In this document: positions 49,636 through 53,060 of the stretch, piece by piece
Layout of the letters: the number at the start of each line of letters is the position of its first letter
Numbering within the stretch: the stretch's first letter is position 1
Assembly (NCBI GenBank): GCA_964507045.1
Contig: CAZDOO010000001.1
Span: 1-64,000 of the forward strand
Source of the DNA: an uncultured Verrucomicrobiota bacterium
GTDB taxonomy: Bacteria > Verrucomicrobiota > Verrucomicrobiia > Limisphaerales > UBA8199
Direction: 5' to 3'
Length of the DNA stretch: 64,000 nt
Notes under the pieces: generated by a model
What the model saw: the letters and a program-made list of their open reading frames with translations, nothing else
What the model was told of the DNA's origin: nothing
Database searches by the model: none
Made by a program: the position numbers and the translations under genes

Positions 49636-49710
49636 GGCTGGGTAGCTCAGTTGGTAGAGCAGAGGACTGAAAATCCTTGTGTCGGCGGTTCAATTCCGCC
49701 CCCAGCCACC
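49636..49710 (+). tRNA. tRNA-Phe (anticodon GAA)
   Basis: GGCTGGGTAGCTCAGTTGGTAGAGCAGAGGACTGAAAATCCTTGTGTCGGCGGTTCAATTCCGCCCCCAGCCACCA has a cloverleaf, anticodon loop CTGAAAA, and a CCA end. Confidence 0.9.
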
Positions 49711-50022
49711 ACTTAAATTCCACCTCGGTAAATCAAGGGTTTTATTACTTTCAGCCCCTGAAACAACGAACCAGCCGGCTAAGGGTCGACAGACAAAGCC
49801 CTGCTCGACATTCTCGAGTGGCCAGCCCGGCTCGAAGTCTGGGACCCCGAGCCCCCGGCCGCAGCGCGCTGAGCTACGCGCACTGCAATCGTGGCTGCGT
49901 CTCGATTGCCCTGCCGCAGCGTTTCGAGCTTCGTATGCGTTTAGACCGCTTGGCGCAGGATTGGCCTTTGACACAGTTCAGTTCCTCCACTGACTTCTGA
50001 CAACCGTTTTGGGCACAAAAAA

Positions 50023-50046
50023 ATGAGAAGACTGGAGTCTTCTCAT
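50023..50046 (-). terminator. intrinsic terminator for minus-strand transcription
   Basis: The perfect palindrome atgagaagactggagtcttctcat is preceded on the plus strand by a 7 nt A-run, which is a U-tract on the minus strand. Confidence 0.5.
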
Positions 50047-50228
50047 TGTCTGCGCCTGCCTGGATTTCGTCTTGTTGGTCAACTCATGACCAACTCAATT
50101 CGTGAACGGGAAGTTTTTGCACCAAGCCCGCGATTGGCGAGGATTCGGCTACTGGCTTAAGCTGGGGACATCCCACAAGATTCGGGGGCCTCAACGATTC
50201 AGAGGCAGGAATGGTCGGTACAAGGCGC

Positions 50229-50348
50229 TCAATGCGCTGAGGGTCTGCGCGACAGGTTGAACAGTAGGGCGCAGAGGACCAGGAAGAGGAAGACGATCGA
50301 GTGTAAGCTGCCAGGCCCGGTGCCGCAGACCGGGTAATCGGCAGCCAT
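50229..50348 (-). pseudogene. collapsed 3' fragment of the O-antigen-ligase-like gene at 51414..53060
   Basis: Encodes MAADYPVCGTGPGSLHSIVFLFLVLCALLFNLSRRPSAH*. This matches the MAADYPVFGTGPG region and the C-terminal 25 aa of the full gene, with an internal deletion. The flanking DNA is also duplicated. Confidence 0.5.
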
Positions 50349-50623
50349 GGGGCGCGAAATGATAGGGCATCCACTGGGCAGGGCTGAGGACGGCGCCTGG
50401 CAGGTCAGGCAAATCCGCGCGCTGGCCAGTTACGGCTGCGGTCAGTTGCAGAGGAGTCCGCCGGATGGAATACAATGAAATAGCCGCGAAAAGGCGCAAG
50501 AAGCTCAAAAGCTGCGCTTTTATGCGCTTCTTGCGTCTCTTCGCGGCCATTTTGCTTCCCCATTCTGTAGCCTATGCCGCGGCTTCCTCAGGAAAGCTCC
50601 GGATTAAACTTTGCCGGCTCCAC

Positions 50624-50944
50624 TCAGCCAAACAGTCGCAAGTCCTCCTGCCAACTTGTAGCGCCGTGCAGCACGCGGTAGATATGCACGCCGCCCGGCT
50701 TGATCTGGTAGAATACGAGGTAGTTTTGAAAAGGGCGAGGCAGAGGGCGAAAACGGATGCCGCGATGACGCCGGGCGGACAGTCGGGCGATGGGTGAGGC
50801 TTCAGGCCAGTCGGCAATTAACTCAAACGCTTCGAACGCACGATCCAGAAACAGCTCCGCCGCATCCGGATTATTGCGCCGGATGTAATGCGCACCGCAC
50901 ACGAGGTCGTCGTCGGCTGCGCGATGCAGGAGATAACCCGTCAT
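50624..50944 (-). CDS. parE: ParE/RelE family type II toxin
   Basis: 106 aa. An N-terminal alpha-helical region carries the RelE/ParE-like HRAADDDL and YIRRNNPDAA motifs. A C-terminal beta region carries the conserved Arg/His. It overlaps the upstream antitoxin gene by 4 nt. Confidence 0.65.
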   Translation of the reverse strand: MTGYLLHRAADDDLVCGAHYIRRNNPDAAELFLDRAFEAFELIADWPEASPIARLSARRHRGIRFRPLPRPFQNYLVFYQIKPGGVHIYRVLHGATSWQEDLRLFG

Positions 50945-51195
50945 GCTCGTGCTCGCTGGTAAATGGCACGCTTCCGGCTGGTGGTAACCGTCCCAGCCGG
51001 GCTCCGCATGCCGTCATCCAGCAGGCGCTCCAGTTCCTGCCGCGTGGCGAAGCTGGCACCGCGCGGACCCGAACGCGCCTCAACCAGTTCCGCAACTCGA
51101 ATGCAATGGCGAATGTATTCGGAGGCGTTGGCAAACTCGCCGCTTTGAACGCGCGAACGGATGGTGGGCTCGTAGTTCAACAAAGATACATTCAT
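50941..51195 (-). CDS. parD: ParD-like antitoxin (CC2985-type)
   Basis: 84 aa. SGEFANASEYIRHCIRVAELVE resembles the SGRYxSASEVIRxALRLLE core of CC2985-family antitoxins. It is the upstream partner of parE. Confidence 0.55.
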   Translation of the reverse strand: MNVSLLNYEPTIRSRVQSGEFANASEYIRHCIRVAELVEARSGPRGASFATRQELERLLDDGMRSPAGTVTTSRKRAIYQRARA

Positions 51196-51413
51196 AAGGG
51201 CAAGATCACGGCAGAGTCATACTTTGTCAAAGCTTGTTATCAGCGAAGATGCGGCTTACGCTCAAAACGGCCAACGGCGGTAGCAAAGCCAGCAGACGGC
51301 GAACTTCGCATCCTCCACGCAGATGCAGCCACAAACCCCGCGCCCGAGCACTGGATTCAACAGGAATTGGGGGCCTCAACGATCCAGAGACAAGAAGGGT
51401 TGGTGCGAGGCGC

Positions 51414-53060
51414 TCAATGCGCTGAGGGTCTGCGCGACAGGTTGAACAGAATGGCGCACAGGACCAGGAAGAGGAAGACGATCGAGTGTATCTGGAACGG
51501 GAAATCAAAACGCGCATGGACCAGGCAGCCTGCGAGAGCTAGCCACATCAGCGCAATAAAGCGCCGGCCGCTGTGGATGCCGCCAGCCACAAACCAACGC
51601 AGCACGACAGTCGCAAGGGCCAGGGCAATCAACACGCTGCCGACCCAGCCGAAAGTGATGCGAGTTTCCAGCCAGTCGTTGTGCAGTTGCACATACCAGT
51701 TGGCCCGAGTGGAGACCCGGTAGAGTTGGGAGACGGTCTCGAAGGTGCCGGGTCCGGTGCCGAAGACCGGGTAATCGGCAGCCATGGGGCGGGCGCGGTC
51801 ATAATCCCGCTCCCGGCCCTGAAAGCCTGAGTAGATAGTGGCCATTCGCGGTTTGAGTGCCTTCCATCCCAACGCGGCGCCCAGACCCAGCGCGCCGACG
51901 AAGAAGATCGCCAACAGGGCCAATGTGATCAGCCGGCTGCTTCTTTCTTCCCGGGAAGTGTCCAGGAGAAAGTGAGTGGTGGCGAGAAACAGAGTAGCCA
52001 GTGCAAGAATCGCGACGGTGATAATCGCGCCGCCGCGGCTGGTGGAAATGATGGGGCAAGCGGCCATGATGGCGCAGCACACGAGCACCCAGTGGTGGCG
52101 GTGTCGCTTCAACCCGCTCGACCGATGGAGCAGCCACCAGAAGCCGAGGCACGCCGGCCAGAGCAGATTAAAGTATTGGGACGCATTGGCGTAGTAGGCG
52201 TAAGGGCCAAACTGCGTGGCGGCCGTATGGTGGATGGCCGGTCTGACCAGGAACAACAACTTGCCCGATCCCTCGATCCGTTGAATGATGCCCTCCAAGC
52301 CCAGCAAGCCACCGTTGATCGCCAGCACCCAGAGCAGGCGGCGCAGCCGAGCAGGGAAGAATTCCGCGTCGGGCTTGCCACCGGGGCCGTTTGCCCGGCG
52401 CTCCGGCCGTTCTTCGGCAGCGGACTTCCCCAGCAGCCAATCGCGGATGGCCCAGAACGAACACGCCAGTCCGAGACAGGTCCACAGGGCGAACCAAGTG
52501 CGGTTGCTGTCGAAGCTGTGGGGCAGCCAACGGATATACCGGTCGCGGTATGCGAAACTGAGCGTATTCGGATCGTAGGTGGCACGGGCATTCAAAGCGC
52601 TGACCAGGCAGTAGGCCAGAATCGCAACCGTCAGCACCGCGAGCGTTGCCGTGAGCCGGGAAGGGGTGAGCCGTGAACGGCCACGGACCACAGACCCCGA
52701 ACTGCTGACAGCGGCCGGGGGCACTGCGGATGGCTCTCGGATGTCCCATTCGTCCCAGCGAGGCGGGCGATAATGCTTCAGCCGGCGGATAGCCAACTTG
52801 AGGGCCAGCATCGCCCCTAAGAGGTAACCGGCACTGTTCATAACCCAGACGGACCACGGCTGGGTTGTGCCAAAGGCCCAGGGGCTGAAGAGCACCATCA
52901 GGTAGATCAACAGTTCCGTCAGAACCTCACAGACCAGATAGATCTGGACGTCACGGGCGCGCAGAGAGGCGCTTTTGCGCATCGGGGCTGGGCCGTTCGC
53001 CGCTTTGCTCAGACCCTGTGTGCCCGGAACCGGCACCGGAGATTGTTCACGGAGTTCCAT
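51414..53060 (-). CDS. O-antigen ligase (Wzy_C) family membrane protein, exosortase-system associated
   Basis: More than 10 TM helices. RDYDRARPMAADYPVFGTGPGTFE is the Wzy_C periplasmic loop signature. It is adjacent to the exosortase gene. Start uncertain (MELREQ at 53060 or MRKSAS at 52982). Confidence 0.7.
   Translation of the reverse strand: MELREQSPVPVPGTQGLSKAANGPAPMRKSASLRARDVQIYLVCEVLTELLIYLMVLFSPWAFGTTQPWSVWVMNSAGYLLGAMLALKLAIRRLKHYRPPRWDEWDIREPSAVPPAAVSSSGSVVRGRSRLTPSRLTATLAVLTVAILAYCLVSALNARATYDPNTLSFAYRDRYIRWLPHSFDSNRTWFALWTCLGLACSFWAIRDWLLGKSAAEERPERRANGPGGKPDAEFFPARLRRLLWVLAINGGLLGLEGIIQRIEGSGKLLFLVRPAIHHTAATQFGPYAYYANASQYFNLLWPACLGFWWLLHRSSGLKRHRHHWVLVCCAIMAACPIISTSRGGAIITVAILALATLFLATTHFLLDTSREERSSRLITLALLAIFFVGALGLGAALGWKALKPRMATIYSGFQGRERDYDRARPMAADYPVFGTGPGTFETVSQLYRVSTRANWYVQLHNDWLETRITFGWVGSVLIALALATVVLRWFVAGGIHSGRRFIALMWLALAGCLVHARFDFPFQIHSIVFLFLVLCAILFNLSRRPSAH

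Follow-up and report, generated by a model that had tools for sequence, protein, structure and literature searches.

How could an addiction module settle at the end of an operon and leave the last gene of that operon unharmed? The question is raised by a locus in an uncultured Verrucomicrobiota bacterium, within a stretch of 64,000 nucleotides (nt) of contig CAZDOO010000001.1, the whole of which is called the window in this text. Here two small genes resembling the toxin-antitoxin (TA) pair ParD/ParE lie between an intact gene for a Wzy_C/O-antigen-ligase-like protein and a collapsed second copy of the end of that same gene, hereafter the relic. We hold with moderate confidence that the pair is a ParDE cassette, predicted to be functional, situated in the 3' untranslated end of a polysaccharide operon, and that it is flanked on one side by the intact ligase gene and on the other by the relic of a once-functional second ligase end, which recombination would have placed there. 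Loci and contigs from other genomes or sequencing runs that were compared with the window are designated by L and a number.

Anatomy of the duplicated ligase end

The ligase-like gene (51414-53060, minus strand) is the final biosynthetic gene of its operon. It is intact and encodes a polytopic membrane protein of 548 amino acids (aa) with a Wzy_C domain (PF04932, E=1.2e-14, 54.8 bits against a cutoff of 31.7). More than 1500 homologues have the same domain, the C-terminus is collinear with that of the homologues, and one database protein, P0025, is 100% identical to it over 548 aa. Followed in the direction of the operon, the gene is succeeded by a tail of 54-59 nt, a unique spacer of 98 nt (51257-51354), a conserved leader of 61 nt, parD, parE, a unique spacer of 268 nt containing a long hairpin (50355-50622), the relic (50354-50175), 127 nt of unique sequence, and a predicted terminator (50047-50022), both spacers being given on the minus strand. 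By this order of elements, the cassette and the relic are located between the last gene of the operon and its terminator.

An earlier note on this DNA, made from the letters without database searches, had proposed that the ligase 3' end is duplicated and collapsed, and the proposal is borne out by a repeat search, by BLAST and by exact alignment. The repeat search paired 50170-50305 with 51355-51490 (136 nt, 89% identity) and 50277-50354 with 51714-51791, and the within-window BLAST E-values of the two repeats, 9e-43 and 4e-14, are far beyond chance. The limits of the repeat blocks were taken from the exact local alignment of the gene copy with the relic copy. On the gene side, block A (51743-51791) lies inside the ligase coding sequence (CDS), and block C (51360-51490) consists of the last 77 nt of the CDS together with the non-coding tail. 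On the relic side, block A' (50306-50354) is a copy of the ligase region encoding RPMAADYPVFGTGPG, with 4 mismatches in 49 nt against gene positions 51791-51743, and block C' (50175-50305) has 13 mismatches in 131 nt against 51490-51360; all four are on the minus strand. Block C' comprises the last 77 nt of the CDS including the stop codon (50229-50305) and about 54 nt of post-stop tail (50175-50228). The positions given earlier were right within about 5-15 nt, while the tail beyond the stop codon is about 54-59 nt and not 30 nt.

In the relic, blocks A' and C' are directly fused with no filler, and therefore the relic is without gene positions 51742-51491, that is 252 nt or 84 codons, in frame. 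The description of the relic as an internally deleted copy of the ligase 3' end can thus be made exact. As the deletion of 84 codons is in frame, an open reading frame (ORF) of 39 codons (50229-50348, minus strand, MAADYPVCGTGPGSLHSIVFLFLVLCALLFNLSRRPSAH) stays open from an internal methionine of the ligase to the original ligase stop. This ORF has no Pfam match, and no purine-rich stretch of the Shine-Dalgarno kind was seen by eye upstream of its ATG; it is probably not a gene.

The gene-plus-relic structure is not an artefact of assembly, because independently assembled contigs from other runs reproduce it. The Logan contig L015 (run ERR12717847) is 99.75% identical over 51490-50276 (1215 nt), and has both the junction between spacer and relic and the internal deletion junction; the Logan contig L016 (run SRR10566892) is 100% identical over 51437-50481, i.e. 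over the cassette. In a third run the ligase contig breaks inside the repeat, so that in all three other runs of the same species show either the structure or a break induced by the repeat. As the first and last 30 nt of L015 are identical, it was also considered as an excised circle, and this was rejected since de Bruijn assembly of any direct repeat yields the same. The two unique spacers and the sequence after the relic are no better than shuffles when compared with each other or with the ligase gene. Moreover, neither the sequence after the relic nor any relative is significantly similar to the 98-nt spacer, and the 268-nt spacer resembles neither the ligase gene nor any relative, contigs of the same species excepted.

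The ParDE-type pair and its flanks

The toxin gene parE (50624-50944, minus strand) is intact and encodes 106 aa, which match PF05016 over the whole profile (positions 1-89 of 89) with 47.9 bits against a cutoff of 23 (E=2.1e-12). Its best relative of solved structure is the ParE of a ParDE complex, PDB 6X0A (E=7.7e-6). The parD-like antitoxin gene, of the CC2985 type (50941-51195, minus strand), is taken from the ORF list; it is intact and encodes 84 aa, which match TIGR02606 and PF03693 below their curated cutoffs and are weakly similar to the solved ParD proteins 7B22, 5CEG and 3KXE (E=0.06-0.9). The antitoxin gene comes first and its stop overlaps the start of parE by 4 nt, a layout present in all homologous loci. 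A module of the ParDE type is supported by the order of the two genes, by their 4-nt overlap and by the fact that they are conserved as a pair, even though the antitoxin scores below the curated cutoffs. In fact the earlier note had predicted a pair of this kind and named the models by which it could be recognized; both small ORFs match TA models, ParE above the PF05016 cutoff and the antitoxin below that of TIGR02606. Membership of a defence system was rejected, there being no PADLOC match, and a plasmid origin was rejected too, as there is no DNA match to plasmids and the protein identity is only 33-36%.

Across six contexts the ratio of nonsynonymous to synonymous divergence (dN/dS) is 0.06-0.42 for parD and 0.09-0.24 for parE, and the two genes of the window contain neither a frameshift nor a premature stop. 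Both genes are under purifying selection.

Upstream of parD there is a conserved 5' leader of 61 nt (51196-51256, minus strand), recognized by homology with other genomes. It contains a -35-like TTGACA (51225-51230), which is present in seven aligned contexts (as CTGACA in L002), and a weak -10-like GATCTT (51202-51207). Downstream of parE, the 268-nt spacer contains a hairpin (50478-50552, minus strand) with arms of 33 nt (50478-50510 and 50520-50552); its surroundings fold with z=-5.8 and a U-rich stretch follows it, and it is likely a terminator or a stabiliser of the parDE transcript. The hairpin is not common to other copies of the cassette and its Rfam matches are far below threshold. 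We considered it as a dispersed repeat or an attC site and rejected both, because the arm is unique in the window and is found otherwise only in contigs of the same species.

The reference systems for such a pair are RK2 parDE, Caulobacter ParD1-ParE1 (PDB 3KXE) and Mesorhizobium ParD3-ParE3 (PDB 5CEG and 6X0A). Like these, the pair has a toxin matching the full PF05016 profile, a small antitoxin encoded first with a ribbon-helix-helix-like N-terminus, a 4-nt overlap and a promoter-like region of its own. Unlike them, it is chromosomal with no plasmid relative at the DNA level (33-36% identity in protein), it is distant from the solved pairs (ParE E=7.7e-6, ParD E of at least 0.06), and its antitoxin scores under the cutoffs of both curated models.

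Distribution of the cassette among related genomes

Databases contain 24 relatives of this ParE with E<=1e-10, which are 52-100% identical and mostly 106 aa long, and the cassette is confined, as far as seen, to subdivision-3 Verrucomicrobia. At the DNA level, a unit of 634 nt (51256-50623 in the window) is 79-87% identical in about seven other contexts (L017-L038, and partly L002). Its similarity ends at the parE stop codon (50623) on one side and about 60 nt upstream of parD on the other, where the left limit varies between 51256 and 51236 by locus, with a raggedness of about 12 nt between contexts. Among the seven contexts whose flanks can be interpreted, five are polysaccharide or exosortase loci. 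For example, L029 has the order exosortase, GT4, ParDE, beta-helix protein, and L017 has the order ParDE, GT4 fragment, exosortase C-terminal fragment, ligase, GT4. In L002 a decayed ParDE copy (5292-5703) lies between exosortase and ligase; its parD is interrupted by an in-frame stop, and of its parE only the first 25 codons remain, joined to the last 9. In L032-L038 ParDE stands in an array with RelB-like and HepT/MNT modules, while in L027 it is flanked by 1.2-kb repeats near an IS110 transposase. As the same 634-nt unit is found at different positions in related genomes, the cassette is mobile on an evolutionary scale. This agrees with the view of the earlier note that the module had been captured, and its tie with exosortase and polysaccharide loci recurs as well. 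In L017 (6497-8381) we also observed that only the last 82 exosortase codons remain downstream of ParDE and are followed by a ligase in three frames, which represents frameshifts or errors of long-read assembly.

No gene-end duplication flanks the cassette in L002, L017 or L029, and the repeats that flank it in L019-L026, L027 and L032-L038 are array spacers and not ends of upstream genes. The relic was further sought in the ligase loci of 12 species-level genomes (L001-L012) and of the nearest homologues in the database (L039-L046, identity of 76% or less), and none of them has the relic, the flanking repeat or a nearby tRNA. In these relatives the usual order is exosortase, ligase, and then GT4 or the end of the co-directional block, and the nearest database ligase is 76% identical. 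In the metagenome scan, the closest relatives of the CorA-like gene that precedes the tRNA-Phe gene of the window (86-88% identity in nt) have only that gene in common with the window and no adjacent tRNA. Moreover, no tRNA was found in the 23 loci scanned, and the interval from tRNA-Phe to the ligase is kept in no relative, whether by the contig scan with the ligase, among the database homologues or by the metagenome scan with the CorA-like gene. The relic and the interval thus appear, in these comparisons, to be private to this species. Of the two outcomes that the earlier note had named as refuting its proposal, neither was seen, as the small ORFs match TA models and the interval with its duplication is not conserved in relatives.

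Two further observations were made at ligase ends of relatives. In L001 a full-length gene for a HipA-type toxin (9188-10450, minus strand) lies 2.3 kb downstream of the ligase, once more a gene of the addiction type at this end of the operon. A guess that the L002 ligase is followed by an ORF for a VapB-like antitoxin was not confirmed by Pfam.

Origin of the relic

The differences between gene and relic are distributed unevenly, with 6 in 122 coding positions (4.9%) and 12 in 59 positions of the non-coding tail (20%; Fisher p=0.0025). Three of the coding differences are synonymous, and the others are I>L, F>C and T>S, the last of which lies beside the deletion junction. Since such replacement changes are fewer than neutral decay in place would give, this distribution suggests that both copies were functional gene ends for most of their separation, mostly under purifying selection.

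Based on this, the relic would be the non-functional remainder, truncated at its 5' side and internally deleted, of a second, once-functional version of the ligase end, which would have been either the allele of a closely related strain or a paralogue formerly in tandem with the gene. We infer that recombination in this highly variable locus put the second end beside the cassette and left the ligase gene intact, by one homologous crossover and one illegitimate join, or else by a single crossover with a circular fragment; the loss of 84 codons from the relic would have come after the joining. Processes of this kind have been described. In PMC3240628, homology-facilitated illegitimate recombination integrates foreign DNA beside a resident gene by a homologous anchor and an illegitimate join, and in PMC3784515, partial duplications of resident sequence (merodiploids) arise in genetic exchange and transformation. 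Those accounts are of experiments in competent bacteria and of conjugation in E. coli, whereas in the window the event is read from a scar.

The cassette itself would come from a pool of small selfish modules that colonise gaps in the co-directional polysaccharide operons of subdivision-3 Verrucomicrobia. Its genes, presumably coupled in translation, would be transcribed from their own putative promoter and by read-through from the operon. In ParDE systems, ParE acts as a poison of DNA gyrase when the supply of the labile ParD is not kept up, and ParD represses its own promoter. The two repeats share runs of perfect identity of 31 nt and 42 nt, as read from the alignment, a length sufficient for homologous recombination. 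A crossover between the 131-nt repeats on the two sides would cut out precisely the cassette and leave the ligase with a clean end. We propose that the arrangement persists because ParE would penalise segregants that lost the cassette, and would thereby keep in place the cassette, the relic and, incidentally, the end of the operon. The earlier note suggested a stabilising effect on the polysaccharide locus; the locus may profit in this way, or the cassette only.

Several points weigh against this reading. The contrast between coding part and tail rests on 18 substitutions and might also have arisen through gene conversion or through selection acting on the 39-codon ORF. As to the cassette, the antitoxin reaches 33.9 bits with TIGR02606 (E=2.3e-8) against a cutoff of 46.2, and 18.9 bits with PF03693 (E=2e-3) against a cutoff of 21; the toxin has neither an NCBIfam nor a PADLOC match; and the promoter scan of the window made no call at the leader, because the -10 is weak. 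The relatives yielded neither an empty site nor a sister strain from which the order of events might be reconstructed. Finally, the synonymous divergence (dS) between the window and L002 is about 1.08 for parD and about 1.03 for the ligase, and since the two are equal, the cassette may be an old resident of the locus, repositioned with occasional exchange, and not a recent arrival. Against L017 the corresponding values are 0.57 for parD, 0.38 for parE and 0.91 for the ligase end, so that the testimony of synonymous divergence on the age of the cassette is mixed.

How else might the copy have come about? It could have been made in place, if an illegitimate or template-switching insertion of the cassette downstream of the ligase copied at least 440 nt of the gene end, and the copy then decayed neutrally, including the deletion of 252 nt. 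Such an event needs no donor strain. The relic is nearest to its own gene (92% over 122 nt, against at most 88% to other species), the non-coding tail is common to both copies, and by chance one deletion in three would be in frame. However, neutral decay should strike coding part and tail alike, which is not what the 4.9% and 20% (p=0.0025) show, and a rough calculation gives about 10 expected changes at non-synonymous sites where 3-4 are seen, small numbers though these are; we regard such duplication in place as unlikely. A constraint on the diverging relic is accommodated if the ancestral order was ParDE followed by ligase, and a second ligase was placed between exosortase and ParDE by replacement of the locus, after which the old downstream ligase collapsed through two deletions. 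In L002 the cassette does stand immediately ahead of a full ligase, and parD and ligase are equal in their synonymous divergence from the window. Nevertheless, the exosortase commonly overlaps the ligase directly (L001, L010, L043-L046), the cassette is elsewhere in L017 and L029, two deletions plus an insertion are needed, and the 268-nt spacer has no trace of ligase, all of which makes this history quite improbable.

The relic might also be alive, as a domesticated mini-gene for a single-pass membrane peptide of 39 aa derived from the ligase C-terminus. Its ATG start, its intact stop, the in-frame loss of 84 codons, the hydrophobic helix and the better conservation of the coding part relative to the tail would all fit such a gene. 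But no ribosome-binding-like sequence is visible upstream, the F>C change falls in a conserved motif, and there is neither a Pfam match nor a homologue elsewhere, the ORF being present in one species only, so that we give this idea hardly any credence. Another possibility is the remnant of a site-specific integrative element, which lost its integrase and everything else except the addiction module. The model is E. coli icd, for which e14 or phage 21 brings a substitute 3' end and displaces the original one, and where the gene and its displaced copy differ mostly at silent or conservative positions. The window resembles it in the direct repeats of a gene 3' end that flank the insert, in the intact gene, in the displaced non-functional end, and in differences that are mostly silent or conservative. 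Unlike e14 and phage 21, the insert is only 1.2 kb long (the repeat-bounded segment is 1185 nt) and has no integrase or other element genes, only parD and parE being found between the repeats, while the relic has a piece from 250 nt further upstream and an internal deletion. Moreover, no integrase, recombinase or transposase was matched among the ORFs scanned from 37.6 to 64 kb, several of which gave no match whatever, and in other genomes the cassette has no such gene-end repeats and has a ragged left end. We therefore consider an integrative element very unlikely, and return to the recombination-placed relic of a functional second ligase end as the preferred reading of the locus.

Surroundings of the locus and the tRNA gene

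The junction separates two different neighbourhoods. To its left there is a housekeeping block with amtB (ammonium transporter), glnA (glutamine synthetase), metG (methionyl-tRNA synthetase), the CorA-like gene (47692-49129) and tRNA-Phe (GAA; 49636-49711, plus strand; ARAGORN, Rfam tRNA 73.4 bits). To its right is the minus-strand polysaccharide operon, which comprises a second Wzy_C gene, GT1, MBOAT, WecG, GT4, exosortase and the Wzy_C/O-antigen-ligase-like gene. The exosortase (53047-54825, minus strand) belongs to the EpsH family with an EpsI-like C-terminal part (PF09721, E=7.5e-40; NCBIfam exosortase models), and its end overlaps the start of the ligase gene. The intrinsic terminator predicted for this operon by the terminator scan (50022-50047, minus strand) has a stem of 11 bp, a loop of 4 nt and a U7 tail, and its RNA fold reaches -25.9 kcal/mol (z=-6.3).

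The tRNA-Phe gene forms the border between the two neighbourhoods, and 464 nt separate it from the end of the relic. The earlier note had given weight to this proximity and had allowed for site-specific recombination as the mode of capture; neither suggestion is upheld. A search of the 64-kb window that tolerated as many as 3 mismatches gave no second copy of the last 25 nt of tRNA-Phe, no integrase was matched among the ORFs scanned from 37.6 to 64 kb, and no tRNA stands beside the CorA-like gene in its closest relatives. Like the genomic islands at tRNA-Phe, the 3' end of the gene faces variable DNA with an addiction module; unlike them, no integrase lies beside it, and the adjoining DNA is the end of an operon with its own terminator. 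A genomic island targeted to the tRNA was accordingly rejected, given the missing 3'-end repeat and integrase match and the absence of a compositional shift, although a far border could lie beyond the window, and tRNA-Phe is probably a bystander. As for site-specific capture in general, no recombinase was matched among the ORFs scanned from 37.6 to 64 kb, att- or attC-like sites were not seen, and the cassette has a left end that varies by about 12 nt; there is no sign of a site-specific mechanism. An integron gene cassette was rejected as well, as the hairpin after parE is unique and no recombinase was matched in those ORFs or within 10 kb of the L060 array, with attC judged by inspection only.

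Some other features of the window deserve mention. Between the CorA-like gene and tRNA-Phe there is a perfect palindrome (49269-49309) with arms of 20 nt (CACCGTAGTACCTCTGATAG c CTATCAGAGGTACTACGGTG), which lies amid short repeats of the CACCGT type and has weak Rfam matches on both strands. Just upstream of the methionyl-tRNA synthetase gene, a solitary ORF (43423-43968, plus strand) encodes an ORF6N-domain protein (E=7e-35), a KilAC/antirepressor-type domain common in phages. Within the operon, an ORF of 101 aa (56214-56519, minus strand) between the GT4 gene and the following genes matches positions 14-65 of the 133 in the DUF218 profile (Pfam E=2.2e-7). It is a truncated DUF218 gene without its N-terminal part and its C-terminal half, both of which relatives have, intact DUF218 being a regular member of these operons there. 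This copy is a second collapsed gene relic of the same operon. Octamer tandem repeats (GCTGAAAA and variants) occur within the exosortase CDS at 53685-53721, 54351-54404 and 54586-54616, where they encode FSVSAFQ-like repeats, and the same octamers fill the spacers between cassettes in relatives. Finally, tandem arrays of 7- or 11-nt units occur in pairs at 25396-25514, 42518-42631 and 45701-45796, where the first array is succeeded, within some 10-20 nt, by a partner built from the reverse complement of its unit, for example (AACATCC)n by (TTGGATG)n and (TCCCCCTGTAT)n by (GGGGAATACAG)n. Such paired arrays would fold as long hairpins, and similar ones flank a four-helix-bundle gene in L019 (9137-9340 and 9721-9830).

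Shuffling arrays in relatives and their implication

In L019-L026 and L060, the cassette belongs to an array of about 10 kb of co-oriented small modules inside an operon that runs from WecA through DUF218 to Polysacc_synt_2. The modules are HNH, a ParD-like gene, UPF0175/DUF3368, two ParDE pairs, GIY-YIG and four-helix-bundle genes, and the 10 kb to each side of the L060 array contain no integrase or recombinase. Strains that are about 95-98% identical over their long shared stretches (L019, L020, L021, L022 and L024) differ in the number, content and order of the cassettes between WecA and DUF218. For example, ParDE is followed directly by DUF218 in L024, and it stands ahead of the UPF0175/DUF3368 cassette rather than after it in L021. 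The breakpoints between strains fall in repeated spacers of 160-300 nt, which contain octamer and heptamer tandem repeats together with the upstream region and the first 20-54 codons of a four-helix-bundle gene of the 23S_rRNA_IVP type, and which end at different points.

Fragments of this gene are also seen in other forms. In L019 (8537-9169; 8147-8779 in L020) a GIY-YIG endonuclease gene (8703-8957) splits a four-helix-bundle gene of the 23S_rRNA_IVP type into an N-terminal piece of 54 aa (profile positions 9-44) and a C-terminal piece of 76 aa (positions 46-103). Stubs of 20 codons from the 5' end of the same gene precede four other cassettes of the array.

These arrays invite comparison with integron arrays and with attC clusters lacking an integrase (PMC4889954). 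They are similar in their co-oriented small modules, many of them TA pairs, and in a content and order that vary between strains; they differ in that the spacers are not attC-like, no integrase lies within 10 kb, the arrays are inside polysaccharide operons, and the cassettes bring a promoter-like region of their own. A wider and so far undescribed process in subdivision-3 Verrucomicrobia is conceivable, in which mini-cassettes move in and out of polysaccharide operons with no integrase, the scar in the window being one footprint of it; we put this forward tentatively, as a rather doubtful proposition at present. The pool of promoter-bearing cassettes in such a process may include ParDE and further TA pairs, as well as nucleases of the HNH and GIY-YIG kinds and four-helix-bundle genes. 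Recombination in it may use captured fragments of neighbouring genes, namely the 5' stubs of the four-helix-bundle gene in the arrays and the 3' end of the ligase in the window. It may thus amount to a cassette system that is integron-like but driven by homology, in which addiction modules protect the arrangement.

To sum up, the cassette of the window is a lineage-specific member of the ParDE family, which stands at the end of a chromosomal operon beside a recombination scar of an ordinary kind. The locus shows an addiction module lodging at the end of an operon without destroying the last gene, and in annotation the 39-codon ORF should be flagged as a relic and not as a gene. In a broader sense, ParDE and other small selfish modules are met again and again in the gaps within the exosortase and polysaccharide operons of uncultured Verrucomicrobia, and they shuffle between near-identical strains. 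The shuffling arrays of the relatives, with no integrase, are more unusual material than the window itself. If an organised exchange of cassettes without integrase were true, it would have a bearing on the way in which surface-polysaccharide loci combine variability with stability.

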